A stretch of 64,000 nucleotides of DNA. It comes from Massalongia carnosa (taxonomy: Eukaryota). This document shows positions 9,942-55,551 of this stretch, piece after piece. The position numbers and the translations under genes were made by a program. The stretch is taken from contig OZ287087.1 of assembly GCA_965645245.1 (NCBI GenBank), forward strand, positions 372,001-436,000, written 5' to 3'. The notes below the pieces were generated by a model that was not told the origin of the DNA, made no database searches, and worked only from the letters and a program-made list of their open reading frames with translations. Numbering within the stretch: the first letter of the stretch is position 1; each line of letters starts with the position of its first letter.

Positions 9942-12461
9942 TCACACCCAATCCTGCTTCAGAACCGACTTCATCTGAGTATACAGCTGGCGATTCTCGC
10001 TCAGCCATCGCATACCTCCTGGAAAGACCACTTTTCGTAGTGCCTTGATGCAAGGCCGTAGTCTCTTGCAGTGAGCCGTAAATGTGCGGTCCACTTCCTT
10101 GTCGAACCTAGCTTCTTCTAGCACCTTGCCTGTTTTGATTTCGGCAAGCTCCATCGTGGGCTTGTAATTCCACGTCTCATACTCTGTTTTGTGTCTTGGT
10201 AAGCTCGGCCCATTCCAATGCGCGCAGATCCAGAACAGCACCCAGAAGAACGACTCCAGATCGTGCATAAAACTGTGATCTTCGTCGCCGTATAGGGTAC
10301 CGATCGCCATAAATACTTTGGTGCCGGTCTTGCTTGGGGCCCCGGAAGCCTTTTGCCGATTCAATCTAATGGCCAGGTCGAGATCAATCAAGAAACCATC
10401 GTCTTCTGCAGAGTTCAGCATGATATTCCCGATAGAGATATCACGGTGGAGGATTTTTGCATCCAGCAGCGACTCGTGTCCTTGGTAAATTAGTCAAAGC
10501 TCGAAATGCCAGACATGTCACTCACCGTTGATGCCTCCAAGCAATCCTGTCAGAACTGCTTTTAACGAACTCGCTTCGTAGATGCTCTTTCCAATATTTC
10601 GCATGATTAACCGGCGATGGACTCGATTGCGTTGCGGCTGAGCATCCTGATTGACGCGCGTGTCTGAACATGACCGTTTGGGAGGCGGCATCGATGTTTG
10701 TAAGTAGCTCGACGATCGCTTTCGTGTGGTTCGACTTACGCTGCTGCTCCTATCCCTGCCGGGAGGCGAACCACTGGACGTGGTTGGACTGGTGACCGAT
10801 TCAGGGAGCATAGGCCGTTGTTGTTGAAAAGGATTCCTCCCGGCGTCAGCGCTGAGCCCCTTCCGCACGTTGAGGCAAACATCGTCCATCTCATCCCCAG
10901 AACGTACGGTCTCGTGGTGATAGTATTGCGCCACGTTCTTGACGCCGGCTTCTGTTGCTTCCTTGAGCAGAAGACCTTCTTCGGGTCGTTCTTCAAATTC
11001 CCACGAATCCTTGATCACAACTCCGCTGTCTCGATCGTGTCCGAGAGAACCAATCCAGCACGTAGTCGCCCGACCCACGACAGCAGCTTGTCGCTTGATA
11101 AGCTTATCCAAGCACAGCCGCTCCGTCCGTCCACACTGCTGAATGAGTATATGCCTTTCACCGTCGTCCTGTATAGTCGAGTCGAACCCCAGTTCTTCCT
11201 CGGACATCCATAAATATCCCAAGAATACCGAAACCAACAACTGTCCGTCCTTGTTCACGTCGAATGGTGTGGATCCTACCACTCCTAGTCGGTCGAGTTC
11301 CCATAACCGCATAACGGAACCGCAGAGGGTAAAGCCCAGGACGAATCGGCGGGTATCTTGCGCAGTGAATATCTCCCGAGCGTATCTCACGAGATCGAGC
11401 CAAGTACTGTTGTAGTTGTCCTCTAGCGGATTACTCTTCAGCTCGCCCGGGATGAGGATGTGAGACCAGTCAAAACTGTTACGGTGACTGTCTTTCCGCT
11501 CCATGTTAGAAGTGTAGGCCAGGCCTACGTCCAATTTTCGCCTGCTAACGGATCCAGGAATCGGCGTGTTTGGGGTGGTCACGCAGCAACGACGCTTCGA
11601 CGGACGGAAGCCCTGTTCTTCTGCGAACAGCACGAACTGGTCGATCTGCCGGCGGAGGAATTGTAGCACCCTTGACTCTTCGCAGCCCTCTGGCCAGTCC
11701 AGCCAGCCAACGCCTGCTGTGAATAGCGGCGAATCCGCGTCTTTACAGTTCTGAAACACAGCTGTCGTCATGTCGTGAAGCTGGGAAACTTGCCCAAAGA
11801 AGGTATTGAAAAAATCGGGGTGGTCTAGTTGCAGATTGTCCTTCACTTCGCCTTTGAGTATAGGGTCAACATCCTTCCTGAGGTCGGACGTGTCTACAAA
11901 GGTGCCCGTAGTGAAATCTACAAAGGTGCCCGTAGTGAAAGTCCGGGGCGTCTGCTGGAAGGAGGTGGTAAAGGGCGGGCCGGACCGAGGAGGGGTTTTG
12001 GGTTCCGCGGCGAGCGTGGGAGCTGTATATGAGGACAAGGCCGAGGTGACTGCGTTATAGACGTTATCCCAGATGAGCTCGTCGTCGTCATTGTTGAGCA
12101 CCGCCTTTAGGAGAGGAACGATCTGTTCGATGTCGACGCTGCCCGAGTTGACCGCCGAACTCAATGTTATCAAATCGCCAAAGAGGTTTCCCTTATCGTT
12201 CTTGGAGGGCAGCGAGCGAGATGCTGGAAGGCTTTGTATGGCCAATATCAGATCAAGCAATAGATTCTGAAGAACTATTGGAGTAAGAGAAGAATCGTGA
12301 GTTCGGGAGACAACGGTACCTTCGCCACTGATATGCTGCAACGCGTCGGAGAGAGGGATGTCTAAAGCATTACACGCCGACGTGAAAGACTTGCGAAACC
12401 CAGTCAGTCCATAGCCGATTGGTTTTATTTGAACAATCTTCGTCCTCGACTCATCTGTCAT
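9942..12461 (-). CDS. Fungal-specific FunK1 (Pkinase_fungal) protein kinase
   Basis: RKLDVG, WSHILIPGELK, RRFVLGFTLCG, GRATTCW, VIKDSW, RVHRRL; intron 10481-10525 (GTGAGT..ACTAAT..AAG) restores GHESLLDAKILHRDISIGNIML; GFLIDLDLA, TGTKVFMA, HDLESFFWV; probable in-frame 45-nt intron near 12275-12320. Confidence 0.92.
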
Positions 12462-12799
12462 GTTGAGAATGTGACGGACAACTCGTTGAATTGTTCATGA
12501 TTAAACACAGCAAGAATATATGTCAAAAAAAATAATTGAGGTTGGCAATAAGATATTGTCAAAGACGGCACTTGACTGACTCTCAGAGACGGGTTACGTG
12601 ACAGTAACAATGATACTTACCATACAAGGACGAATATACGAAACTTCGGCACGCGCGTGCAAAATACGTAATCAATCCCCATTAAATACAGTGCGCCAGA
12701 AGCAAAATTACGTGTATATTACGGTAATTGACCCCCAAATAACCCCCAGGCAAGATGGGGGGTTATTTGGGGGTCATCTCAGTAATTTGCCGATCAAAC

Positions 12800-20496: not shown

Positions 20497-20877
20497 TGTC
20501 ACGGTTCAACCACATCCACCCAAGGCCAATCAAAGGAAAGTACGGCATCTGCCGGCGCACTAACCGCTTCCGTTACTCAACCCTTTTAGCAATCATAGGG
20601 GCAATCAACGGAGGTCTGAAAGGACTGAAAGGGACGCATCGGAACGACCTTCTAACGCAAACACAAATAGATGAAAGGGACAAAGGGCAGAAAGACTGTT
20701 TGACCAAACTGTTCACTTATTGATGAAGACACAAGCAGCTGGATCGGGCCAAGTGATTATCTATATAGACTCCTAGAGAGGGCACCCTTTGCTTGTTTTC
20801 TTTCAGCATCTTTGATATTTTCTAGTGCATAGCTTCCCAGTAGATAGTCAATTCCACAACCTGGTTGAACCGTCACA
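20497..20877. mobile_element. Solo LTR (family S2)
   Basis: TGTCACGGTTCAACC...GGTTGAACCGTCACA; TSD GTTCT/GTTCC; partial inverted copy 40408-40601. Confidence 0.88.
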
Positions 20878-21696: not shown

Positions 21697-24346
21697 TTAC
21701 CCCATACCATCAAGCTCACTTGAAAGCTCAACTGGCTCCGTTGACCCATCACCTAATTCTATTATTTTCGAGCCTTGTTCGAAAACTAGCAAGAGGTCTT
21801 GATGACCGGAAGCGGAAGCCATGTCGTAGGGCGTCTTGCCTTCAGAGTTTGCTTGGAAAGGATCGGCACCTCGTTCGCACAGGAATGAAGTCACGGCAGC
21901 GCGGAGTCTTAGATCCCACCTGTACGAACCCGTCCAAAATGTGACAGCCTGATGAAGCACTGTTACGCCGGACGTCTCGAACGGCGTATTTACGTCCCAC
22001 CCGTGCTTGAGCAAGATCCTCAGAATCGCAATTATCCGGTGTACAACGTGTTCCTTCTCAGCCTCTGCTATGGTTTTCTTCAACCATGAGCGGTTCATCA
22101 GTTGCCCAGCCAATGTCGACCATGAATCTGGCTCAGACGGCTTGGCACCGTTTGCGATCAGAAACTCAACCATATCCACTTGCCGAGCGCCAATGGCAAA
22201 TTTCAAGGGCGTGAGGCTGCTTGTGTATCCGTACGGGGCTTCGTTGGTGTTGAAACCTGAGCTGAGGAGGCGCCGCGCCATATCGATCTCGCCGAAGAGT
22301 GCGGCGAAGTGCAACGCAGTTACGCGTTCTGGACGGATGCGCTTGCGCAACTTTGACCGCCAAAAGTCATTTTTCCTATTGAGAAGACTGGTGATAGCTG
22401 AATGGTCACCGTCGAAGACCGCCTCTTCGATTCGATCTTTGGGTTGACATCCGATCTTGTTGAGTATCTCCTTCCGAGACAGAGTTTTGCCCTTGGAGGT
22501 TTCACTTGCCTCAGGAGGTTCGCCCGGGCTCGGAGCTACGGTACCAAGTGCTTCCGGGTCTGTGGAGTAATCTTCATGCGCTCTCTCTTTCTCCGTTGCT
22601 CTCGACTCGTTTCTCTCCTCTGCCGACGATAGAGATGTCACCGTAATGGATTGCCGATCCTCCACACCCGCTTCATTTGACGGGATGCGTTCGTGTAATC
22701 GCTGAAGACTAGCAGCTGGCGATTGCGATATCATCGGAGACACCGGGCCGTAACAACGGTGTTCCATGGGCGACGCGAGAGAAGACGCGGAGAGCCCGCT
22801 CTGAATGCGCTTTACTGCCAGATCTGAGTCTTCAGAGATCGACCGAGTCAGTAGTGAGTACGAGTCAAGATGCTCCACCTTCGTGCCCAGGGACTCTTCG
22901 ACAATTTTTAGGATGGCGTCTCTGCGTGCTTCTGGTATCATGGCAAGGCATGATTTAGCACGAGCACGGTTGTTGAGCAAGACATATATATGTGCCATAA
23001 GCGCCGTTGACTCCAACGAGGCGTCGCTCCACTTGCCCAATAACCGCCGTCGGGCCTGTAAGGCTTTCTCACACTCCGATCGTGCACGGTCGACCTGGCC
23101 CATGCGGATGTACAAATGCGACAGCAGATGTGCCGTGTCGCAAATGTACCCGCGTTGTTGATCGGAGCTCGCTGACTGTTGGATCAGGCTCATGAGCGCT
23201 GCTTCGATATCCGCAGGCTCTTGCATGTGATACGCACACACAGCAAGTTTATACTGCAGACCGAAGATGTTATAGAATGCTCGTTGCTGCTTTGGAAGCT
23301 GCTGTACTACTCGTAGAGCTTCTTGAAGAAGAGAATCGGCCCCCTCCCATTCTTGCGCTTCGAAAGCTTTTGTGCCAGTTTCTAGCGCTGCTTTGGCAAG
23401 GTCGGTGTCCAAATCATTGTCCGGGTCGTACCATACTGTATCAATAGCCTTGCGTTCCTGCACAGCACGTTGCGCAGAAGTTGCGCTCGTCACGACGGTA
23501 TGCGCTTCGTCCCTAGAAAAGACAGAGGGGACGTTGGAGACCATATCTGAGGAATCCGAAAGTCGCTGGTCCCGGCATACAAAGTCCAGAGCACTCATCC
23601 ATTCCGCAACGCGAATGTTACTATTTGCTGCTCCTTGACCTCCAGCGACGGACTCGGCCACCAGACTTGCCTCGTACATGGTCGTACCTTCCACGATGAC
23701 TTCACGCGCACACTGCATTAAAGTGGCCTCGGTATGGGAAGGTCGCGACTCCGGGGTGGCTTCCGATGATCTCTGCAGCTTCTCCACTACATCTTGCAGC
23801 TTGTCCAGTTCCTTAGCAAGCCCCCGATCAGTTCGACAAGGCGCAAGGTGCGCGCGTACCCTGCGTGTGAGATTAGCTTTGTCAAAGGTCAATCAGAAGC
23901 AAGGCTCACGTATTGATCAATAGTAGCGTAGTACGTAAATTGTCGGTGTGCCTACAAACCTTTGTCCTGATACCTGCAATCTGGTCCTTGCTTTCCCTCT
24001 GACGCTGAGCCTGACCGATGAGACCGGACTTTTCCCCTCGAACGCTTTTGACAAACAGCTCCAGCTCTTGGATTGTTCGGCTGGTCTCCTCCACTTGCGT
24101 CACGAGACAATTCCAGATCCTGCCATCGACCTCACTCTTGCTCACAATTTCTTCCAATTCAGCATATACAATGTCGCATACATTGCCAAGCGATTTGACC
24201 CCCTCTGCTAGATTCCTCACCGTAGTATCAACGGTTCTGGTGTCCTGATGAAGGTTCGAGAGGGCACTCCCTAGCTTCCAAGCTGCTTTACTCAGCGCGA
24301 GGACGGCAGAGGCTGTACCCGCAGCTGTAAACGGGGTGACCCCCAT
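21697..24346 (-). CDS. HeLo-like/fungal STAND N-terminal domain + TPR + ankyrin repeat protein (about 866 aa)
   Basis: Intron 23861-23909 (GTGAGC..GCTAAT..CAG) joins the 146-aa and 731-aa ORFs in frame; N-terminal AAGTASAVLALSKAAWKLGSALSNL; TPR-like ARSECEKALQARRRLLG; ankyrin TALHFAA, TPLKFA, TVLHQAV, GKTPYDMA. Confidence 0.85.
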
Positions 24347-33652: not shown

Positions 33653-34987
33653 TTAGTCATCGTCTTCATCGATGACTTTCTCCTCCACCACCTCTCGAAT
33701 AGTCACAGCCATTTCGCGTTCTTTAGCTGCTGATAGCTTTCCTGCAAATGAACTTACAGTCGTGTCGCCTTGCACGATGGGCTCGACATGCAAAATATCC
33801 CCTATCTCAAGCGCAAGCGCACGAATCACGCTCCCGCGCATCCACTGACCCGGTGTTCCCCAGATTTTTCCCATTTGGATTTTTTGGGAATCGTTTTCAC
33901 AGCCGTCCACCATAAACCGACGACGGCGAAAAAGTGTAATTAGACAAAGAAAATAAAGGTTTCGCTTGAGAGGTCGAGCTTCGGTTTTAAACGTCAGTCG
34001 TTTATTGTTAAGATCCCGATAGAGTGGACCGTTCAAGAAGACGTGCATGGACAACAAGGACTCATCTAGCACGACCAACTTCAATTCGTTCATCGATTCG
34101 TCATCGGGCACGATCACAATTCGGCCATCATCTAAATGCCCCTCGATGCTCGAATATAGAATGAGCCCGTTCTTGAAATCCCAGATGGCTTTCCAGCCTT
34201 CGTCCAAAGGCAATCCGAAAATATAGGAGGCGTTAAACTCTCCAATGCCATATGGCACAATGTGTGCCACTGTCGTGTGAGCTTGTTCATGCCAGGCGTT
34301 GGTAACGGGACACCACATCAACGGCAACGGCAGATTCGTCTTCGGTGCGTCGTATTCGGGTGAACCCTTCTTCGGGGTAGAGGCATTGCGTACCAGATTT
34401 CGGAACTGTTCCTGGTCGTTGTTATTGCGAGCTCCCGGCTTCTTGAACTTGGCCCCGGCAGGCTCGGGGAGACGATCCACCAATGCCCCCAGGTAAGCCT
34501 CTCCGATGCGCGCATGTGTAGGATGGGAGAGAATTCCATATTCGAGTTTCACGCGATTTCGGGCCAAAGCTGCCCGTTCTTGGAGCAGAATGGCGTCGAG
34601 CTCTTCGATGCCGCTAAGAAGTCGTTTCATCGTCGGCTTGTCTATGGATTTGGTTTCGTTGAGCTTCCTCAACACATTTCGGCAAGATTTGTGATGCATC
34701 GCTAAATCTTCCAACAGCGGCTCTCGATTTGCGACATACTCTTTGGCGCGGCTTGGGCTAAATGACTCAAGAAGCAACTGCGATGAAGCGGACGCGGTTC
34801 GTATTCTCTCATTCAAACGATCCCTCTCATCCGCCATTTCGCTGCTTAGATGGCGAAACCCAGGTTCAGGGGATGTTGAGAAGCGTTCTAACGGGTCTAC
34901 AAGGGCCATCGTGAGGCTCTCTCGCTGTTTGCGGCGTTTCTCAAGTCTATTACCGGCGGAGCTTCCTTTCACGGTCGGTGAATCCAT
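33653..34987 (-). CDS. Fungal HNH-family endonuclease domain protein (444 aa)
   Basis: N-terminal coiled coil; FRNLV, WCPVT, AHIVPY, NGLIL..IE..LDDGRIVIVP, DLNNKRLTF..RP..LYF. Confidence 0.8.
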   Translation of the reverse strand: MDSPTVKGSSAGNRLEKRRKQRESLTMALVDPLERFSTSPEPGFRHLSSEMADERDRLNERIRTASASSQLLLESFSPSRAKEYVANREPLLEDLAMHHKSCRNVLRKLNETKSIDKPTMKRLLSGIEELDAILLQERAALARNRVKLEYGILSHPTHARIGEAYLGALVDRLPEPAGAKFKKPGARNNNDQEQFRNLVRNASTPKKGSPEYDAPKTNLPLPLMWCPVTNAWHEQAHTTVAHIVPYGIGEFNASYIFGLPLDEGWKAIWDFKNGLILYSSIEGHLDDGRIVIVPDDESMNELKLVVLDESLLSMHVFLNGPLYRDLNNKRLTFKTEARPLKRNLYFLCLITLFRRRRFMVDGCENDSQKIQMGKIWGTPGQWMRGSVIRALALEIGDILHVEPIVQGDTTVSSFAGKLSAAKEREMAVTIREVVEEKVIDEDDD

Positions 34988-36334
34988 CTCTGAATTTCTT
35001 AATAAGAAGCTGAGAAAATAATAGAAGTTGAAAAGAAGAAAAAAGAATTCAAGAGGTTTATTTGTGAGATTTTCGTCTCAGTATAACCAACAATGAGAAG
35101 CCCAAGAGTTGTTTGCAGACGAAAGCTTTCTACTTCTACGTGAAAAAAATGATCGTTTCGTAAAAGGAGTGCAAGAAGATCTAATACTTGCCTCAATTCA
35201 AATATGATTAGAATCGGTTCGATTCCTGTTAACGTTGACCTATTGAGAGGATGGAAGTTTAGCTCTCTCTAGTTATCATGACCAATAGTGCCGAAGTCTA
35301 ATTATTTTGATCTCATGTGATGCGTGCCTTAGATTGTTCTAGTTGGAAAAACAAAAGTCATAACACATGCTACGCAGAAATATCCTTCTGTGATTCGTCA
35401 AAAAAACAATACTCTTAAAACCCAGTAAAGAATTGACACATGACGAGAATTTTAATCAGCAATCTCATTTAAAGCTTAAGGATTAGTTTCCGAAAAATTG
35501 ATATTATGTGAATGTTTGCAACGGTTCAATCAGACTCTATCTACTGGATACCTACCTATTCATGAAGAATCTCAAAGACGCAGTTGTAGGTGAAGATATA
35601 CACCAGGTATGACTAAACATAACACTTCCCTAAGTAATCAGGTTCTGTATCTGTGTCCTATACAGTCATGCTTTAACTGTGTTCTGCTTAACCTTCGGTC
35701 TATGGTTCGCAGAGTCGCAATCACGCTTCGAGGACCGAGGTAAGTATACCATGCTCGACGGTCAGGATAGTCAGGTATCTAGAAGGTCAGGAGGATAGAA
35801 AGATAGGAAGTAAGATAAAAATGATCGAACTGTAGCTCTTGTTTTTTTAATTTTTATTAAAAGTTTTTAAAAACATTCTATGCTAAATGACGGTTGATTT
35901 GTAAAGTGTCGCTTAGATGACGTTAAGCCTTGGTCATTGAATTTGTCGAATGTTCTAGATTGCTTTATAGTCAATGCGATCATCTGCAATTGGAGTTTTT
36001 TGTAAAACTATTTTTAGTATTAAAAATCGCAGACTGCGAAGACAGATTTAATTTATGTGTCAACATGACGAGTTCTGATATAAAACTCCCTTCTATGACC
36101 CTTATCGGTGCCGTTACCTTCGCTTGCGCTTGGGGGGGCTTTTAATTGGATGAATTGATTTGAATGCTTGAATTTGATTGGGCATGGGAACGACACAGGT
36201 CAGCCCGGGCAGGCCTAGGCACGTGACTCGGGGTCGGTGCTGAGGTGAGAACCTCATCTTCTAGGCCCGAGGCGTCTGCTGACGCTCAACGATCCGATAG
36301 ATGATGCCCGACGGCAGTGCCCGACGGCGATGAT

Positions 36335-37498
36335 CTAGATGGAGGTGCCCGGCGGCGCTCCGGATCGATGCCCTGGTTGACCTGTACGCCCAATGGAATG
36401 CCCAATTGAGTAGGGGTAGGAGTTTGTAGGATTCGTCTCGGCGACGACAGCACGTGGGACTGCCAGAGGGATGCCTTTTTGAAAACTGAGGTTCAAATTG
36501 AATAGTGAGGCCTGGGACGTCTGAAAGTATAGCTGAAACGCGTTTGATGACCATCTTCCGAGTCTCTGAATACTCTCATCCAGCATCCCGTGGTCGGCGG
36601 CGTGTTGTGCTGCTCCTTTTCTGAAGCTGTGTCCCGAGTATGCCGAGTCGTTGATGCCGGCGGCTATCAGTCTCTTTTTCAGGGATGCTATGACGGAGGC
36701 TCTGGTGAATGCGGTGCCGAGACGAAAAAGCGGGGATGTAGATGGCTGAGGATCATTTCTGAAAAGACGCCGTAGTGCTGTCACGGGGCAAGTGCTCTCA
36801 TTGGTCGCTGCCAGCACTATCTGAACTCCTGAGTGATTTGTGTCTGTTTTGCTTCTTTTGAGACGTAATGTCGCGTATTGATCGTTCTCGGCGAATGAGA
36901 TGTCACCTCGTGTAGGTTTCAATCTCTGAAAAGATGTCTTCTTACGATCGGCGACAGTGTAGGTGATTTCCCCGAGTCTGAGGAACCCTGCCCATGCAAC
37001 TTTGAATGTCGCGTCGATGTTGAGGTCTTCGGCCGAATGAGCGGGAATACTGGTGATTTTTGTCAGTAATTCTTTTGAAATGGGTAGGCGTCTTCTTTTT
37101 GTCTGAGAAAAGATCCTTTTCCCCCTTTTCAGCATCAATTGAAGTCTCGGCCCCTCGAATGGGGTGAGGCCGTATCCTCGGTCTACATGGTATGATCTGA
37201 GGCCGGCGAGGTAGCTCGCTGCCGTCTCTGGTTTTATCTTTCCCTGCTTGGGTGTGCCGCCCCCGTATAGTCGACCGGCTAGCCATTCCTCGAGGGACTC
37301 GGTTGTTGCAGGCCACGACGTGCGTCCCGTCGTCGCGCAGAATGCCTCGTATGAGTCGATCGCCGTCCCGTACCCTTTTCTCGTGTCCGCCGAGTGTCCG
37401 TGCCAGACGAGGCGTTTTACCAGGGCTGACCCTGGTGTGGAGGATAGGTAGGTGGAGGGAGGTTCATCGAATTGTATGGGTTCTGCCAATGAGGGCAA
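36335..37498 (-). CDS. Tyrosine recombinase of YR retrotransposon
   Basis: Catalytic set intact: FLRLGE, RSKTD, CPV, GHSFRKG, LGRWSS, QLY; ORF begins at TTG and overlaps pol by 82 nt. Confidence 0.93.
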   Translation of the reverse strand: MPSLAEPIQFDEPPSTYLSSTPGSALVKRLVWHGHSADTRKGYGTAIDSYEAFCATTGRTSWPATTESLEEWLAGRLYGGGTPKQGKIKPETAASYLAGLRSYHVDRGYGLTPFEGPRLQLMLKRGKRIFSQTKRRRLPISKELLTKITSIPAHSAEDLNIDATFKVAWAGFLRLGEITYTVADRKKTSFQRLKPTRGDISFAENDQYATLRLKRSKTDTNHSGVQIVLAATNESTCPVTALRRLFRNDPQPSTSPLFRLGTAFTRASVIASLKKRLIAAGINDSAYSGHSFRKGAAQHAADHGMLDESIQRLGRWSSNAFQLYFQTSQASLFNLNLSFQKGIPLAVPRAVVAETNPTNSYPYSIGHSIGRTGQPGHRSGAPPGTSI

Positions 37499-39120
37499 AA
37501 GTTAGCCAATCTTTCATCATCAAAACGTGACAGGGCATCTGCTAGTCCATTGGAAGTGCCACTGATCCATTGACAACGTAGTACGATGTCCCACTTTGCA
37601 GCTATGGACAGTATTTCTCGTAGAGGCGCGTTGGCCGGTCCCTTGAGGGTTAGATTCGTGAATCCTGTGTATGCTGTGTTGCTGTCGGTAAAGACAAGGA
37701 TCTGTCGATGTCGCCATGTCGGCGCCCATTTCTGAAGGATTAGAAGGATAGCCTCGACTTCTCGGACGTTTATGCTCGGTGATTCTTCCTGATTGAGGAC
37801 TAGGACTCGGGCCCTACATGCGTTTTTTTGATTCACGAGCTCGTTGTCTTGTTGAAAATAGCCTCCGAGACCCGTGAGGCATGCATCCGTATGCACCTTG
37901 ATCGTGTCTCGTATTGACGTCTCGAAGAAGACAATACCGTTGAAGTGCACTAAAAGTTTGTTCCACCAGATGAGATCCTGTCTGACCCATGTGGGAATTC
38001 TTCTTTTGACCCGACGATGACTGCCCGAGGGAAATGAGGCTATAAAATTCCAGAATAATCGTAAGAAGACTCGGCCCAATTTGACTGCCTGTGCGCAGAA
38101 GCTTAGGAAGCCCGCTATTGACTGCATGTCGCCGAGGCTGATTGTCGTCTCGTTTAGTGCCTTTGTAGTGATGATTCTCGCTTTTTCCAGCTTGTCCGCT
38201 GGCAGACGAATAAGACTGTTGATGGTGTCGACCTCGAGTCCGAAGACTGTCGCTGTCGTTCTCTCGGCGTCTTTTGAGTCGTTTCTCGGGATGCCGAGAA
38301 TGTCGGTGAGAATGTTGTAGGCTTTTGTTTCTTGGTGGAATCGTTCTGACGATGTCTCGGATGGGAAAATTGCAACGAAGTCGTCTAGATAGTGATGTAA
38401 TCTCCATTGTAGAAAGGATTCCAAAATCCAATGAAAGCCTTCCGCAAAAAGATTGAAGATGAACGGGGCCGTCGACAGTCCGAACGAAAGGCATGTCTCG
38501 GTGTAGAATTCGTCATTCCATCCGAAACCCAGAAGCCATTGATGATGAGGTGCGACGGGAACGTTTCGAAAGGCGTCTTTGACGTCTCTTTTCACTATGA
38601 CAGCACCTTTGCCCGCTGACAGAATCAATTGAATAATGTCGTCGAGTCTGGCGTATTGTAATTTGGATGCCTCTTCTGGAATGTTGTCGTTGACTGATGT
38701 TTGATTGGGATGAGACAGATGATGAATGCGTCGCCATCCTCCGTCATGTTTCGGGACCAAGCCGAGGGGGGAGGCCACAAATGGCTGACTCGGGGCGGCT
38801 ATTCGTCTGACTCGGCCCTTCCTGAGGTCCTCTTGAAGCTTATTCTCGATCGTTTCCGGGTCCTCATTCGCTGATGTCAGATTTTTTTCGATCCGAAGGA
38901 TGTCTGTGGGGCCTTCGTATCCGATTTGTACTCCGAAACGAAGGATCATGGGCAGATGGACTCGGACGGGGCCCGGATACTCTTGAAGTAGGGTTGCCCA
39001 TGCGGACGGTACGAGGGGAGATGGGCTGTCTTTCAAACGCTGACGAGATGCGTCTACGAGTTGAAACGAAGGGATTGTATTTGGTCTGATTGGTGCAGGT
39101 AAGCAGGGATGGGACGTCAT
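37417..39120 (-). CDS. Reverse transcriptase/RNase H (DIRS type)
   Basis: SPLGLVPK, RRIHHLS, DVKDAFR, LSFGLSTAPFIF, YLDD, HTDAC, TDS, ADALSR. Confidence 0.95.
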   Translation of the reverse strand: MTSHPCLPAPIRPNTIPSFQLVDASRQRLKDSPSPLVPSAWATLLQEYPGPVRVHLPMILRFGVQIGYEGPTDILRIEKNLTSANEDPETIENKLQEDLRKGRVRRIAAPSQPFVASPLGLVPKHDGGWRRIHHLSHPNQTSVNDNIPEEASKLQYARLDDIIQLILSAGKGAVIVKRDVKDAFRNVPVAPHHQWLLGFGWNDEFYTETCLSFGLSTAPFIFNLFAEGFHWILESFLQWRLHHYLDDFVAIFPSETSSERFHQETKAYNILTDILGIPRNDSKDAERTTATVFGLEVDTINSLIRLPADKLEKARIITTKALNETTISLGDMQSIAGFLSFCAQAVKLGRVFLRLFWNFIASFPSGSHRRVKRRIPTWVRQDLIWWNKLLVHFNGIVFFETSIRDTIKVHTDACLTGLGGYFQQDNELVNQKNACRARVLVLNQEESPSINVREVEAILLILQKWAPTWRHRQILVFTDSNTAYTGFTNLTLKGPANAPLREILSIAAKWDIVLRCQWISGTSNGLADALSRFDDERLANFCPHWQNPYNSMNLPPPTYPPHQGQPW

Positions 39121-39165
39121 GAATTCAGCTATTGAAGCTATTCTACTGCCTCCTGCACCAACCCC

Positions 39166-40179
39166 CTATTTCTTCGTTGGGCATGTCTTCTGGCCATGCC
39201 CAGCCGCGCCGCACGATTTGCATTTGTGCTGTCGGTAGCACGACGGCCAGGTGCAGGTGCCGCTGTTGTACTTGTCGCAGATTTCCCCCGCTGCCTTCTC
39301 GGCCCTCTCGGCCCTGTCTCCTCTCGGGGTCGGTCGTCGGGACGGCGGGGATCGTGAGCGGCGACGGCGTAGGACTGTGAGGGGGGTGCAGAATCGAGCT
39401 TGGAATTCGTCGGGCATTTTCCATTGGGATGCGTCGGATGGCTGAGACGCGATGATGTGGGTGTGGGTTTCGATGGCGAGGGGGAGGACTGCTTCCTGCC
39501 ACTCGTACACCTTGGCCAGCGTGAGGATTTTTCCGTGGAATGCCGACATGGTGGCGTGAAGCTGTTGACTCGATTTCCCGAAAAGACTGACCATGATCGA
39601 GGTGTAGTTGATGAAGCTCTCGGTCCAGACGTCATGAACTGTCTTTCCGAAATCTTTGTAGGTCCCGGATGCCTTTCTCAACCTCAAGGCGCCGTCTTCG
39701 ATGCCGATGCGGTCTTGATCCTTGTATGACTCGTATTGCATGCCGTGCATGTGTCGGAGGCGGGAGAGGTTGATGGCTTTGAATTTATTTGAAAAGAGCT
39801 TGATGATCTCGTCCTGTGGTAGGCCCGCGAAACGGGGTGCTATGCTTCTTACTTCGAGAGGGATCTCACCTAGGTCCTCGTCGTCATCGCCGACGACACG
39901 ACTCGGCTTGCCAGCAGGAATGACGGCCGCTATTCGGGCGTCAGATTCTCGGCGCATGCAGTCGATTTCTAGCTGCATTTTTTCCACCTCCTTCTCGGCG
40001 ACCAATGCCTTGGACTCGGCAATTCTAGCCTCAGCCTCGGCCGCCTTCGCTTCCGCCTCGGCTTTCTTCTTTTGTAGGGCGAAGATTTGATTGGATTGGG
40101 CCTGCGTCAATCCGACAATCTCCTGGGGGTCGGGGACTATGTCGTCCATCAAGGTGCTTTGGGAACGGGTGTTCGTCAT
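39166..40179 (-). CDS. Gag-like protein of YR retrotransposon
   Basis: ATG at 40179; coiled coil; C-terminal CDKYNSGTCTWPSCYRQHKCKSCGAAGHGQKTCP Cys/His fingers. Confidence 0.85.
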   Translation of the reverse strand: MTNTRSQSTLMDDIVPDPQEIVGLTQAQSNQIFALQKKKAEAEAKAAEAEARIAESKALVAEKEVEKMQLEIDCMRRESDARIAAVIPAGKPSRVVGDDDEDLGEIPLEVRSIAPRFAGLPQDEIIKLFSNKFKAINLSRLRHMHGMQYESYKDQDRIGIEDGALRLRKASGTYKDFGKTVHDVWTESFINYTSIMVSLFGKSSQQLHATMSAFHGKILTLAKVYEWQEAVLPLAIETHTHIIASQPSDASQWKMPDEFQARFCTPLTVLRRRRSRSPPSRRPTPRGDRAERAEKAAGEICDKYNSGTCTWPSCYRQHKCKSCGAAGHGQKTCPTKK

Positions 40180-40407
40180 TGGGAGGTAGGGGCACCGAGA
40201 CAACGTGAGGTCGACGACGAGTCAGTGAGATTGGAAAAGCAGCAAGCACTGACAGCGAGGTAGGGGCACCGAGACAACGTGGGGTCGACGACGAGTCAGT
40301 GAGATGGATGAGGCCGAGTGAGAAGAAGTGAATGAGGAAAGAATTTTCAGAGGGTGATTCTTAATTTACTTTGACTCAGGGGCCTCACGTGACATAGAAC
40401 CATCTCA

Positions 40408-40601
40408 TCTGTCCTTTGTCCCTTTCATCTATTTGTGTTTGCTTTAGAAGGTCGTTCCGATGCGTTCCTTTCAGTCCTTTCAGACCTCCGTTGATTGCCC
40501 CTATGATTGCTAAAGGGTTGAGTAACGGAAGCGGTTAGTGCGCCGGCAGATGCCGTACTTTTCTTTGATTGGCCTTGGGTGGATGTGGTTGAACCGTGAC
40601 A
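40408..40601. repeat. Truncated LTR of family S2
   Basis: Reverse complement of about 20497-20692; ends GTTGAACCGTGACA. Confidence 0.85.
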
Positions 40602-41595
40602 TTCTGTAGAAAATTCAATTCTTAAACTTTATTCTAATTCTTTGTATCCTCCCTCTCCATACTCTTCGAGACTTTAGATTTCGAGCTTCAAGGTGATTTG
40701 ATAGCATGTTTTCCGACAGTGAATATGCAATTTGCTATTTCGATGAGCATATCTGTGCCAAATGTAAAAGGAATTGAACTTACAATTTGCTCCAAGAACG
40801 GCGGCCAGGATTTATAAAAACGACCGTTCTCGCGCACAATTACCACCACATCAGCGTCACAAGCTTTCCGAGCTCGTAAGCCTTCTTAAACAAGCAGTGT
40901 TATCTTCTTCGCATTATCTAGCTTTGCATTTTGGTATCGTTGATCATAATACTGTGTTTTAATAATCTTTCGAGATTTTTTAAAACTATTAGCTCGTAGA
41001 GCAATGTGTATAGTGAGCAAGGAGGGTCTGAAAAAGCATTTTACAATAAGACTGGGGGGGGGGTCCCGAAAACGATTTCAATCACCGGGGTGTGGAAGAA
41101 GTCGAGAACGACAAATACTGCGCTAAAGCAACGCCCATGTATGCGCGTTAACCCGTATTCATTTAGTTTGAGGCGTATTAGAGATACTGTGTTATAGAGC
41201 CATCTCTTATTCCATTTGAAAGATTCTGATCGTCAAATGGATACGCCTGTTTGAAACGCGTAATTGATGTAATAATAACTACATTTGCTTGACCACTCAG
41301 GTTTAGCGTGAGCCTATACTGCCCTCTACAGTGCCTCTTAGAACCACTCTATCCCACGACTCTTTCAAGAGTAACTACACCGAATTGGCCTCGTGCTAGG
41401 TTGCCGAAGCCATGTACAAATTGCCCACCATTCTTATCAGTGAACAGACCTATCCTGAGGGGACCGAAACCTCCCTTACGTACCCGCCGGCGACCTGAGC
41501 GCCAGCTACCTCCGCGGTGCTCCTTCACTCCGTCTCTTCGTCGCGAATTCGTAACAAGCAACGTATATATCTAAAATAGCTAAACTCCTTCATTT

Positions 41596-50108: not shown

Positions 50109-53100
50109 TGTCGGACCGTTCTTATTGATCTGGAAAATGATGTTCTCCTTGTCTATCTAAACTGGAAATTCTAGCTAGCTATATAGACCATTTCGCCACA
50201 TTCTTTCATAATCTAGATATCTTCCAGCCACTTCTATTTACTAATAGATCATTAGTGATCCGGAACCTATGCGAGGTACAATGCTTTGAAATCATTGAGT
50301 ATTAGAAATCAGATATATGGCATAGAAAGAAATAGCATCTGAAAGATCGAGGCCTCGGTTATTAGTCCGAAATCACGTGCTTTTCCTTCAACAGGATCTT
50401 ACTTCGGGAATTGGCTTGAACAACGGTCTATTAATATCGACATACCCCCCCAGATTTAGCATACTAAGCTGAAGCTGCTTCCTGACCTTGATTAGCCAGT
50501 ATGACTGATATGTCAGTCAAATGCAGCTGTTTGATGAAATCGTCAAGTTTCTGACGAGGTAAGACCTTGGTAAATCCGTCGGCAGGCATTTCCGCTGTGG
50601 GCATCCAACTGACGTTTATACGACCAGCTTGAACTTCTTGCCTTAGCCAGTGACGATGTATATCCACATGCCGAAGCTTAGTATCTAGCTTCAACATCTC
50701 TTTATCTAGGATCCTGAGGGTCTGGCGATTATCGCACCGAATGTGCAACTTTTCCATGGGATTGAACCGAATGGCTTGAAAAAACCGTTTCCACCACATA
50801 GCTTCCTTGGCGGTCCGAGACAGGGCTAGCAACTCGGCTTCAGTGCTCGATGTGGTGACCGTGGCTTGTTTAGCTGCTCGCCAGTCTATTGGTCCACCAT
50901 ACAGCTGAAAAAGGTAACCATCGGAGCTTCTTCGAGTCAACTCATCATCAGCAAACGCTGCATCGCTAGCACACATCAGAATGTCAGTTTTCTGATGACC
51001 GTTATATTCTATAGCCAGGTTTTTAGTCCCATTTAGATAAGCAATAACCCGATCGGCCGCAGACAGATGATCCGGGCACGGGTTTTGTAAGAATTGAGCT
51101 AATTTTGCAGTTGCAAATGCTATATCGGGCCGGGATATTACCGCTGCGAAGTTCAATGAACCTACCCGTTGCTGGTACGCATATATACGTTGACTGTCTG
51201 CTTTTTGCTCGTTTTCATTGGCTGGAGGCACCACTGTCAGTGGTGTTTTCGCGGTTTCCCCGTGCTGATTAAATTTCGCAGCCATTTTGGTAATGTATGA
51301 GTCCTGACATAACCATATCTTCTTATTTTCTCGGTCTCGGGTAATCCTTATACCGAGAAACCATTTCAATTCCCCTAGAGCATGCATTTCGAATCGTTTC
51401 AGGAGAGCTTTCTCAAATTCTTGTAATTTGTCCGAATTATGCTTCCTGCATATGACCACAATGTCATCGACATAGAAGAATAGGATAATCCACTCATTGG
51501 CAAATAGACAGTTGACCCCTGGGACTGGCGCTAGTCCGAGTTCCTCTAGGGCCATGGTTAGGAGCTTATACCATAGAATCGGTGCTTGTTTTAATCCGTA
51601 CAGAGCTTTTCTAAGCTTCCAACAGTATCCGGGCTTGTCAAAACCTTCTGGACACTCACAAAAGATTTCCTCATCAATCGGGCTATTTATGAAAGCACTG
51701 ACCGCATCATACTGATATCAAGGTCAAATGCAGCTGAAATAGCCATTAGAGCTCGAAACGTTCTCGCTGCCAATGTTGCAGCATACGTATCTTGCTGAGT
51801 CATCTGAAGATCTCCTCGTACACATAGACGGGCCTTGAATTTCTCAACATAGCCGTCGGTGTCATGCTTATACTTAAATACCCAGGTGAGTGGTATCCGG
51901 TCCTGTCCCTGAACTTTTTCCACTAGCTCTTACGTACCACGCTTTTCAAGCTCGGTGAGCTCTTTGATGGCCGCTAGCTGGAATTCCTGCGAAAAACGGT
52001 GATGGAGCATCTGCCTCCAATATCGGGGCTCCACCGGGATCTCATCCCGATGGAATTTCTTCAAGGTTTCGACCTGTGGCCGTTCTAGGCCGACCGAAAA
52101 CGCTGCATGGAACGGGGTTAACTTGCTGACTGATGCCAGCGCAATTGCATATGCCTGTTTCCTTGATCTAGTGTTCCTGGCAATTGATTCATCCGTTGTC
52201 TCTACCACCCGAGGCGTCCGTCTCGGCCTAGCCGACTGTCTCGGCTGGCTCGGTCCGTCCTCGGTTGATTGAACACCTGGCATTCCTTGAACGTCCGGCT
52301 CGGAGCTTATTTGAACGTCCGATTGCAGAGTCTTTTCCAAACCATCACGCTCCGATGTCTTTTCAGGGGTAGGTAAGTGAGGATTGTTTTCCATATCGGT
52401 ATGAGGAAACATCGTCTTTTCTGACGTTTCTGTTTCACTAGGTTGATTGGTTGTTTGGTCCAATCTCGGACCTACCTCCTCATCGTCTTGCTCAATCATC
52501 ACTCCTGCAAAGGATGTTTCGGGCACTTCCAACACCTGAATCACGTTTTCCACGGTTATGTTTAATAAATGTCCTATATCGAGCTCATTGGGCTCATAGA
52601 ATCTTGTCTTATCAAACATTACATCCCTGGTCCGGATGACTTTCATACGGCTGGGAATCCATATTCGAAAGATGTTAGTGGAGTCGTACCCCACCAGGTA
52701 TCCAATAAAAGCCCTTGGTTCGAGCTTCTCTTTCCTGGGAATCACCTGATTAAGCGGGAACGCTCGACAACCATACGGCTGCAGGTGAGATAGTTTCGGT
52801 TTTTCCCCGGTTAATTTATCTATTGGTGTTTTCCACCCTAGTATCTTCTTCGGGGTCCGGTTATTTAGATAAGCAACCGTTTTGAATATTTCTGGCCACA
52901 TACTAGCTGGCAAATTTGCTGCTATGCGCAGGGCCCGCGCTCGGATCACCAGTACCCCCCCAGATCGCTCGGTTTGACCGTTTTGTGCTGGAGTATATGG
53001 GGCCGATCTTTTGGTGGTGATACCTCTCATTTTCATGAACTCGGCGAATTCTAAGCCGAGGGTTCGCTCGTCGTCTGTTCGAAAAAACCGAACGGTCTGA

Positions 53101-55551
53101 TCGTATCTAGTCTTGGTCATTTTCAGGAATTCCTTGATCACCCCTAGAGCATCATTTTTTCGAGTATGGGTGTAGACGAAGTCCATACTGGTATAAAAAC
53201 ACCTGAAGTGGCTCACCCAGTTGTCCCCGTTGTATGCTTCAGTCAGCTGAATAAGGTCATACCCTACTCGACCGAGCGGAAAGTTCGCTGGCTCTTCCTG
53301 TCCCGAACGTCTCGAGATCAGGTGATGGGCTTTGGTCAGCGAGCATGTCTTGCATTGCATCGTATTCGGTGCTGTCTCGAGTACTGTTACCTTAACTCCA
53401 TCTACCCCCTTTTCGAGGTGAGAAATTTTTTCCGGTCCAGGATGACCGAGCATCTCGTGCCACTCTTTTCCCGTCGCTATCAATTCCGGTTTCGGACTGG
53501 TACTGGCCGCAAATGCTCTATGCGACCTTACCGTTGGTGGGTTGTCTTCTATCACCCAATGGCCCCCTATTTGCTTGGTGCGGCAGAACGTCTTTCCCTT
53601 CTGATGCAGATGAGAATGTTCGGTGTCCCAGTGAACCCCCTTCTTTGTTAGCTTGCTTAGGCATACTAAATTGGTGAAAAATCCTGAGGATAGCGCCACA
53701 TCTAGAAGCCTGATTGGCACCGGCCCATGAGGTCCTTGTGCCGTGATATCTACCGTTCCATATCCATCTATGCTATAAACGGTTTTTCCGGCCATGAGCT
53801 TGTCATCAGTGTTTGCTATACGCGTCAACTGAAACCGCTCCGGATCATTGCATACATGAATGTCTGTTCCGCAATCCAGGGTCCAACAGTTGACCAACCT
53901 ATGTGGCTCCGGTTCGGAAGCAACTGCAAACGTTGAAAACGATCTAGGTGGTGCGGCAGGCAAGATCGAGACTGATGATCCGGCAGGCACTATCGAAACT
54001 GCAAATGCTGCAGTATCGGATTTTTCTGAAGACGATTTCTCTTCCTTTCCGACTTTTTCGACTTGTTTTGCGTGCTTATCTCGGACCGACTTGATGATCT
54101 TATCTAGCCGATGATTCTTAGCTAGCTTTTCTTCTATTATTTTCTCAATGCTCTTGTCCGGGGTCCACCCCTCTGGCCTCAGGTCCTTGAGCAAATAGTA
54201 GCAATCCTTGAAGCGGTGCTTCTTGCCACATATGCACTTCTTCTCGGAATTTCCTTGGTCCGAGTTAGATCCCTGAGCTGATTTTTGACTCATTGTCGAG
54301 TTCGATTTTTCTTGATCTGATTGGTCAGATCCTTGAAATGTTGTAAATGCCGAATGGGTAGCCCCCTTGCTATCTAGGGCCCTGGCGGTTCGCAAATGAT
54401 TCCGGAATTCTTCCAGAAGATCCCTTATCGAGAAATCTTCCTCATTCCGATGAATTTTATACTGTAATATGGCCTCTCTACCGGCCACAAACGAACCGTC
54501 CACTGTCCTTAGCGCATTCAAGAAATCATAAATGCATCTATGTCCCTGAACGTCCGGAATTTTCAGTCTATCCGCTTCTGCATAGACTTTCTCCCATTCC
54601 AACAACCAGTGATCCAGTTGCTGACTCTTGGGGGCACGTTGTAGGTCCTTATATTTCCGAATAACTTCGAGTTCTCGGATCCGGTCCGTCGGTGCAAGCC
54701 TCTTCTTTAGAGCTGATAACTTCTTATATCGAGTCCTGTCCCCTGAGATATAAAAAATTGGTCCGATCCACGGTGGTCAATATATATGCTTCCAGGTTTT
54801 TTAGGGCTTCGGTCTTCTCCCGATACGTACGCAAGTCTTCTCTATGATCCTCTCTTCGCAATATCAGATCCCGTCGCTGTCCCTCGGTTAAGTCCTCGGA
54901 TGACACGGCACCTGCTTTCATGGAAGAGAAGGTAGGGGTAATGGGTCTGATTGGCTCGTCTGGCTCAGGTTTCGCCAGGTCCACATACTGCTCGATTCCA
55001 CCTCGCTTGGCCATGGACTCCACGATAAGGATCCATTCATCCCAGTCACCGGGCTCCTTGAGGACTACCACGGTTTTCTGACTAGAAGCGGGCAAGGTAG
55101 AGAAAGACATCTTCTGTTCGATTGTCCAAAGAAGATGGAAGAAGTAACAATAAAGGTCAATAAGAACTTGGGGATACTGATCGATGAATGCAGCGATTAG
55201 GAAGCCGGGCTCATAACTGTCGGACCGTTCTTATTGATCTGGAAAATGATGTTCTCCTTGTCTATCTAAACTGGAAATTCTAGCTAGCTATATAGACCAT
55301 TTCGCCACATTCTTTCATAATCTAGATATCTTCCAGCCACTTCTATTTACTAATAGATCATTAGTGATCCGGAACCCATGCGAGGTACAATGCTTTGAAA
55401 TCATTGAGTATTAGAAATCAGATATATGGCATAGAAAGAAATAGCATCTGAAAGATCGAGGCCTCGGTTATTAATCCGAAATCACGTGCTTTTCCTTCAA
55501 CAGGATCTTACTTCGGGAATTGGCTTGAACCACGGTCTATTAATATCGACA
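50109..55551 (-). mobile_element. Full-length Ty1/copia retrotransposon (copia-C), recently inactivated
   Basis: 334-bp LTRs 50109-50442 and 55218-55551 (3 differences), TSD GGAGG, PBS GTTATGAGCCCGG, PPT GGGGGGG; gag zinc knuckle CICGKKHRFKDC, protease LDCGT, integrase WHEMLGH..CKTC..QNGQTER, RT YVDD, RNase H; lesions: frameshift about 54727, stop 51930, frameshift about 51715. Confidence 0.97.

Follow-up and report, generated by a model that had tools for sequence, protein, structure and literature searches.

A retrotransposon with gag and pol in one frame

The stretch of DNA analysed here, referred to as the window, comprises 64,000 nucleotides (nt) of Massalongia carnosa (GenBank assembly GCA_965645245.1, contig OZ287087.1, positions 372,001 to 436,000). 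Its minus strand carries three long open reading frames (ORFs), spanning 40221-36335, that encode a gag-like protein, a reverse transcriptase with RNase H (RT/RH, the pol ORF) and a putative tyrosine recombinase (YR), and that together form a retrotransposon (Table 1). Self-searches find only one copy of this element within the window, and its gag, RT/RH and YR ORFs are all intact. The gag and pol ORFs share a frame and are separated by a single UAG, and the comparisons described below suggest that this stop is probably a site of programmed read-through.

By gene content the element is Ngaro-like. The frame of gag is open from 40221, giving a stop-to-stop ORF (40221..39169) of 351 codons. No Pfam family matched the gag-like ORF; a gag profile made from relatives matches it with an E value of 2e-83, and most relatives have a Cys/His-rich gag C-terminus. 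The next ORF contains a retroviral-type RT followed by RNase H, as in Ngaro-type elements: the Pfam family RVT_1 covers amino acids (aa) 137-281 (E 3.4e-12, 47 bits against a cut-off of 29.6) and RT_RNaseH covers aa 420-498 just below its cut-off (E 5e-5, 23.8 bits against 24.8). The Phage_integrase match on the YR ORF is weak (aa 264-320, E 1.6e-3, 18.7 bits, below the cut-off of 27.1). This ORF is kept beside RT/RH in relatives, in which a search with the YR ORF of the window matched 73 ORFs, and a YR profile was made from the 72 of these that are shorter than 520 aa. Methyltransferase, aspartic protease and DDE integrase had no Pfam match in the gag, RT/RH or YR ORFs, and all three absences agree with the Ngaro type. 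The YR ORF overlaps the end of RT/RH, which leaves no room for a methyltransferase, the enzyme whose presence defines DIRS1-like elements (Ngaro definitions in PMC3783388 and PMC3266345). Split direct repeats (A1..A2, B1..B2) were sought between 40700-40150 and 36450-35000, two stretches that have no direct repeat of more than about 14 nt in common; the sole repeat seen is a 49-nt pair within the 5' leader. Inverted repeats between the two flanks were not found either, which leaves the ends of the element undefined. Because the split direct repeats were not found, we call the element Ngaro-like rather than a proven member of the group.

On the minus strand the gag–pol junction reads TGC CCA ACG AAG AAA TAG GGG GTT GGT and continues through the remaining sense codons to GCT GAA TTC ATG ACG. 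The first-pass annotation had described a gag TAG (39168-39166) followed by 15 in-frame sense codons that lead into the RT ORF, and this description is exact: the stop-to-stop RT/RH ORF (39165..37420) begins directly after the TAG in the frame of gag. In a single copy, two ORFs share a frame by chance one time in three, so the significance of the arrangement rests on relatives.

Table 1 Features of the element and of its gag–pol junction in the window
Feature	Position	Strand	Remarks
Gag-like coding region	39169..40179	-	337 aa, first AUG at 40179 to last sense codon
CX2CX4HX4C zinc knuckle	39181..39222	-	gag C-terminus, translation CKSCGAAGHGQKTC
Gag stop UAG, proposed read-through site	39166..39168	-	context AAG AAA UAG GGG GUU GGU
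15 sense codons GVGAGGSRIASIAEF, start of pol frame	39121..39165	-	stop to first AUG
Predicted helix, 5' arm, G-rich	39146..39163	-	pair list; duplex energy -32.0 kcal/mol
First in-frame AUG of pol frame	39118..39120	-	16th codon past stop, in helix loop
Predicted helix, 3' arm	39088..39106	-	codons for P-C-L-P-A-P-I just before RPNT
RT/RNase H ORF	37420..39165	-	582 codons; stop TAA at 37419-37417
YR ORF	36338..37501	-	388 codons; -1 frame relative to RT/RH; overlap about 80 nt

A protein search with the RT ORF returned 319 relatives, and in the best 120, which were examined, the conserved N-terminus of pol, approximately (V/I)AS(L/I)AN..L.QF...PC.PAP.RPNT, starts upstream of the position of the first AUG in the window. 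The residues IASIA..EF, encoded before AUG 39120, align with the (V/I)AS(L/I)AN..L.QF part of this motif. In the metagenome locus L021 the first six residues after the stop are GVGAGG, the same as in the window. Near-identical copies in the contigs of 4 public runs carry no variant at 39121-39168 and about 40 variant places elsewhere in the element, in a comparison in which one run may be the source of the window itself and contigs drop rare variants. Splicing out of the stop was rejected by eye: going upstream, the first GT falls within the codons of the zinc knuckle, and the sole downstream GT...AG leaves the stop in place.

Conservation of the stop among relatives

Metagenome loci were fetched by RT similarity alone, with an alignment of 36 RT proteins as the query, and were classified with the gag and RT profiles. 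The 79 loci obtained have RTs 34-52% identical to that of the window; 22 of them have no gag end on the contig and are uninformative, leaving 57. The in-frame stop that the first-pass annotation had proposed to look for in homologues is widely kept: gag and RT lie in one frame with exactly one stop in 39/57 informative loci, in one frame with 3-12 stops (decayed) in 5 and in different frames in 13. A continuous gag–RT frame, that is, a sense codon at the position of the stop, occurs in 0/57. Because the loci are related, they were clustered at 70% RT identity, and 27 of the 33 clusters, excluding the window's own, hold a one-stop member (binomial P 1.4e-8 against an expectation of 1/3). A quick maximum-likelihood tree of the RTs has two deep clades, and each contains one-stop elements. 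As a control on the pipeline, the junction between RT/RH and YR was scored in the same way and is in the -1 frame in 54/59 cases, so the pipeline does not yield 'same frame' by construction.

These counts bear on the simplest alternative, that the TAG arose by a random nonsense mutation in a defunct copy whose gag and pol were once a single fused ORF. Two proteins, P0092 and P0103, are indeed continuous across the junction, but both carry YLDE in place of the catalytic YLDD. The homologous stop is present in 39 relatives at the RT distances given above, no informative locus is fused, all three ORFs of the window copy are intact, and the stop is unchanged in the near-identical contigs of the 4 runs. 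Hence, a chance nonsense mutation is extremely improbable.

For the analysis of the junction itself we used a set of 40, made up of the 39 one-stop loci and the window. The type of stop switches among near relatives: L002 has TAA where L003 has TAG, L013 and L016 have TAA where L015, L020 and L040 have TAG, TAA/TAG switches occur inside two clusters, and the gag stops of close relatives include TAG, TAA and TGA. A single in-frame stop that is kept in homologues while one stop codon is substituted for another is the pattern by which read-through is recognized, and it is the pattern found here. Between the stop and the RPNT motif, the linker varies from 7 to 143 codons and is always open and in frame.

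No AUG lies between the stop and the RPNT motif in 20/40 junctions, so that in these elements any pol begun at an AUG would lack conserved residues. This matters for the alternative that pol is translated independently, from AUG 39120 in the window copy and from non-AUG codons in relatives, through an RNA from an internal promoter or through internal ribosome entry, in which case the shared gag–pol frame would be functionless. The first-pass annotation had kept AUG 39120 as a possible independent start. The codon is present and in frame, 15 codons past the stop, and gene callers start P0003, a 99% identical protein, at this AUG. The AUG is, however, not conserved, and with half of the junctions lacking any AUG ahead of the conserved N-terminus of pol it makes a weak rival; it has a T at -3, sits in the loop of a predicted helix and lies downstream of the conserved IASIA..EF. 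A promoter is reported at the gag–pol junction of Tca2, a copia-type long terminal repeat (LTR) retrotransposon of Candida albicans (PMC2194720), and the 13 relatives with gag and RT in different frames also fit independent translation. Such translation leaves unexplained why 27/33 clusters share one frame with one stop, and why the linkers differ by indels in multiples of three. Overall, we regard independent initiation as unlikely.

Sequence context of the stop

The gag stop differs in its next base from the stop that ends the RT ORF of the same elements. Of the 40 junctions, 26 have C directly after the gag stop and 12 have G, while A and T occur once each; after the RT stop, A is found in 18, C in 8, G in 5 and T in 0 (n = 31). 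On the 5' side, AAA immediately precedes the gag stop in 18/40, and in 20/40 the last two bases are AA. On the 3' side, CAA or CAG follows in 14/40, with the exact sequence CARYYA in 5 of these, and L005 and L034 have TAG-CAATTA. TGA-CTA is found in 4/40, two being TGA-CTAG, and TGA-CTC in another 4/40.

Published read-through motifs are grouped into type I (UAG-CAAUYA), type II (UGA-CUA, or UGA-CUAG in mammals) and type III (UAG-G with a structure), and in yeast the chief 5' determinant of read-through is a pair of adenines ahead of the stop (PMC4615788). Judged by sequence, the stop contexts of the family match the type I, II and III motifs as well as the two-adenine determinant, and are thus of the leaky kind. 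The window has AAA-UAG-G together with a predicted helix; other lineages have UAG/UAA/UGA-CAA-YYA or UGA-CUA(G)/CUC and no long helix.

A predicted RNA helix at the stop

The 120 nt starting from the UAG of the window fold with a minimum free energy (MFE) of -36.9 kcal/mol (z -2.83), and 2/200 dinucleotide shuffles fold as well. In the predicted structure, 39163-39146 pair with 39106-39088 to form an 18-bp helix that contains one bulge and is extended by two pairs involving the G of the stop; the helix encloses two small hairpins and AUG 39120. A GAGGC/GCUUC stem put forward in the first-pass annotation did not hold up: it is absent from both the MFE and the centroid folds, in which GAGGC forms part of the 18-bp helix.

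To score pairing between the two arms, the first 30 nt past the stop were matched as a duplex with the 42 nt that end in the RP codons. This was done for 34 of the 40 junctions; L005, L022 and L026, in which no motif was recognised, and L011, L012 and L047, with linkers shorter than 60 nt, were dropped. The 11 G-type junctions have a median duplex energy of -28.6 kcal/mol, and the 21 C-type junctions one of -8.9. G-rich and C-rich arms pair to a degree in any case, and the better control is to swap arms between lineages. Across 8 G-type lineage representatives the native arm pairs have a mean of -28.4 kcal/mol, which between-lineage swaps never reach in 20000 permutations, so the arms co-vary between lineages. 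An RNAalifold consensus of the window, L021 and L029 keeps 12 pairs, of which 1 is changed on both sides, 3 are changed on one side and 1 is lost in one of the sequences. Of the first 18 nt past the stop, 16 are the same in the window and L021, although the two RTs are only about 43% identical.

In murine leukaemia virus (MuLV) the signal is a compact pseudoknot, with a spacer of 8 nt between it and the stop. The structure predicted here is a nested hairpin and not a pseudoknot in that position, as given by folding programs that cannot predict pseudoknots.

Programmed read-through of the gag UAG, yielding a Gag–RT/RH fusion, is in our view quite probable. The proposal of such a fusion in the first-pass annotation gains support from the conservation of frame and stop, the switching between stop codons, the stop contexts and the absence of an AUG in half of the family. 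Under this model, pol would have no translation start of its own, and a minority of ribosomes would decode the gag UAG as sense and stay in frame to make Gag-Pol. The signal in the window copy and its G-type relatives would be a UAG followed by G and by a stable predicted helix, in which the G-rich 30 nt after the stop pair with the C-rich codons of the conserved PAP..RPNT motif. The helix would stimulate read-through, a role that we infer, as we do read-through itself and its frequency.

A different way past the stop would be termination followed by re-initiation, or a non-canonical bypass other than near-cognate decoding. The stop bypass of Tca2 has been called non-canonical, with its mechanism left unresolved (PMC2194720), and a helix that starts right at the stop is not a textbook stimulator. 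Re-initiation, however, needs no conservation of frame and normally does need a start codon nearby, which half of the family lacks, and the contexts found are those that favour near-cognate decoding. We consider re-initiation or bypass very unlikely.

Evidence against read-through

Several observations weigh against read-through as the way in which these elements express pol. The loci are related to one another, and raw counts overstate their independence. In 13/57 loci gag and RT are in different frames, several of them with intact gag and RT ORFs (both are intact in L024, L025, L043, L045, L058, L067, L071 and L075), and the clade of L019, L024, L025, L028 and L032 has no one-stop member. 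The layout of one frame with one stop is not universal in the family, and this clade may use another expression route. L071 matches the one-stop locus L072 exactly over some 140 nt past the stop, after which all similarity is lost, and L058 differs from L067 by a 2-nt indel just after the stop; L071, L058 and L067 look like derived or damaged copies. Among the 120 examined proteins, the two already mentioned (P0092 and P0103) have gag joined to RT in frame with no stop between them, and, with YLDE at the catalytic site, may be decayed copies or gene models.

The coding signature of the linker is also weak. In the linker, 8 pairs compared over 391 codons show 78, 85 and 113 differences at the first, second and third codon positions; the corresponding numbers are 38, 34 and 110 at the end of gag and 61, 43 and 133 at the start of RT. 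A weak third-position excess in a linker that is always open and in frame indicates that the linker is a fast-evolving tether, with frame continuity as its chief constraint.

Other points concern the structure. The helix starts 0-3 nt past the stop, compared with about 8 nt for the MuLV signal, and with its base adjoining the stop a ribosome positioned on the stop would already have melted the lower helix. Structure z-scores for the family were computed with mononucleotide shuffles. Finally, the in-frame UGA of Tca2, which has a predicted pseudoknot, did not support read-through when placed in a yeast reporter, and the junction was found to hold a promoter (PMC2194720).

Comparison with known systems

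The gag-pol junction of MuLV, a type III signal (PMC4615788), resembles that of the element in having one frame split by a single UAG, a G as the next base, a purine/G-rich stretch and a downstream structure. Unlike MuLV, the element has a long predicted hairpin with its 5' arm 0-3 nt past the stop and its 3' arm 60-80 nt downstream, in conserved pol codons. It also differs in having no protease domain and in that it would integrate by a tyrosine recombinase, not a DDE integrase; without a protease domain, the Gag-Pol fusion may stay uncleaved. Extended 3' stem-loops reportedly act as stimulators of read-through (Firth et al. 2011). As modelled by folding, the signal of the window resembles the type III or the extended stem-loop class.

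Within the family, different lineages share the type I and II contexts (UAG-CAA-UYA, UGA-CUA and UGA-CUAG), and the G-type lineages carry the long helix. Known signals come from RNA viruses and a few cellular genes; here, unlike there, all three classes are found at one homologous site in a single retrotransposon family.

Tca2 is a fungal parallel, with gag-UGA-pol in one frame and a predicted 3' structure (PMC2194720). Unlike the element, it is an LTR retrotransposon with protease and integrase. It was tested in Saccharomyces cerevisiae, whereas the evidence for the element is comparative and comes from many lineages.

Fungal Ngaro and other DIRS-order elements are alike in their order of gag, RT/RNase H and YR, in a YR ORF that is frameshifted relative to RT/RH, and in having no methyltransferase, protease or DDE integrase (PMC3783388). 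The available text of that article describes ORF overlaps and frameshifted YR ORFs, and does not describe an in-frame gag stop or read-through. Term searches within the available text of PMC3783388, PMC8547959, PMC3266345 and PMC9210276 gave no mention of gag-pol read-through. More broadly, the literature searched holds no description of gag-pol read-through in Ngaro, DIRS or tyrosine-recombinase elements; the original Ngaro description (Goodwin and Poulter 2004) and supplements lay outside its scope. Read-through is a known recoding strategy, and its use by tyrosine-recombinase retrotransposons, as suggested by the present comparison, appears new.

Implications of probable read-through in a third order of retroelements

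Read-through is an established means of setting the Gag:Pol ratio in gammaretroviruses and has been proposed for a few LTR retrotransposons, whereas tyrosine-recombinase retrotransposons are usually described with overlapping or separate ORFs. If the reading proposed here is true, a third major order of retroelements joins the users of read-through. The family would then offer a natural comparative series, in which one site carries UAG-CAA-UUA, UGA-CUA(G) or UAG-G with a helix depending on the lineage, and which could serve to calibrate fungal read-through signals. Annotators would then have to begin the pol genes of such elements at the gag stop; a start at the first AUG would deprive pol of conserved residues in half of the family.

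The RT/RH–YR junction

The second junction of the element was compared in 59 cases (58 loci and the window). The YR ORF is in the -1 frame at 54/59 and opens at the conserved A-N-x-C-P-H-W-Q end of RNase H, and protein conservation moves from the 0 to the -1 frame directly after the conserved CAY-TGG-CAG. The 0 frame of L030 and L057 closes at TGG-TAG after just 16 nt of overlap, so any shift is confined to a very short stretch. No AUG precedes the conserved YR N-terminus at this junction. A slippery heptamer of the form X_XXY_YYZ is absent from the overlap in the window and from 57/59 junctions overall, and present in 2/59. Read in the -1 frame, the CAY-TGG-CAG motif contains (C/U)UG-GCA, a possible non-AUG start.

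Taken together, the two junctions raise the possibility, which we put forward tentatively and hold to be rather doubtful as a whole, that a widespread soil and fungal clade of tyrosine-recombinase retrotransposons depends on two successive recoding events for the expression of its enzymes. The first would be gag-stop read-through with repeated evolutionary swaps among all three known signal classes at one homologous site, the 3' arm of the G-type helix being made of codons of the conserved pol motif. In the second, a non-canonical -1 shift at the CAY-UGG-CAG end of RNase H would yield the recombinase.

Surroundings of the element

Shortly before the gag AUG, the 5' leader contains a pair of 49-nt direct repeats at a spacing of 74 nt (40183-40231 and 40257-40305). 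Their copy number differs among the public runs, with a joint that skips 59 nt in run X2 and a 17-nt insertion in run X5. One contig of X2 joins 36392 to 40233, skipping 3840 nt and with them all three ORFs; there are 28 letters on the shorter side of the joint, which may represent an internally deleted copy or an assembly branch. Directly upstream of the 5' leader is a repeat of about 195 bp (40408-40603), with an inverted copy, 97% identical, 20 kb away at 20497-20691. Contigs of other runs have differing flanks at 40408 and at 40601/40603, so this is a separate small repeat, perhaps a miniature inverted-repeat transposable element (MITE) or a solo terminal repeat. Among the metagenome loci, the contigs of L014, L076 and L078 have a gag ORF downstream of YR, an order consistent with copies in tandem or with an element assembled as a circle, and one that could help to fix where the element ends.

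A 474-codon ORF at 33653-35077 (minus strand), which carries an HNH_2 endonuclease domain (E 8.5e-7), follows the YR ORF at a distance of about 1.3 kb, and the two are separated by an AT-rich stretch (35200-36000, GC content 0.35-0.38). A copia-type LTR retrotransposon occupies 50464-54776 on the minus strand. Its pol is split over two ORFs, one of 948 codons with gag_pre-integrs, Pol_BBD and SH3_retrovirus matches and a separate one of 417 codons with RVT_2. Genes with TPR and ankyrin repeats and genes with Pkinase_fungal domains are often located in repeat-rich fungal regions, and two minus-strand ORFs of the window, at 21697-23892 and 10518-12494, are of these kinds, one with TPR and ankyrin repeats and another with Pkinase_fungal (E 1.8e-86), a domain that marks the window as fungal.

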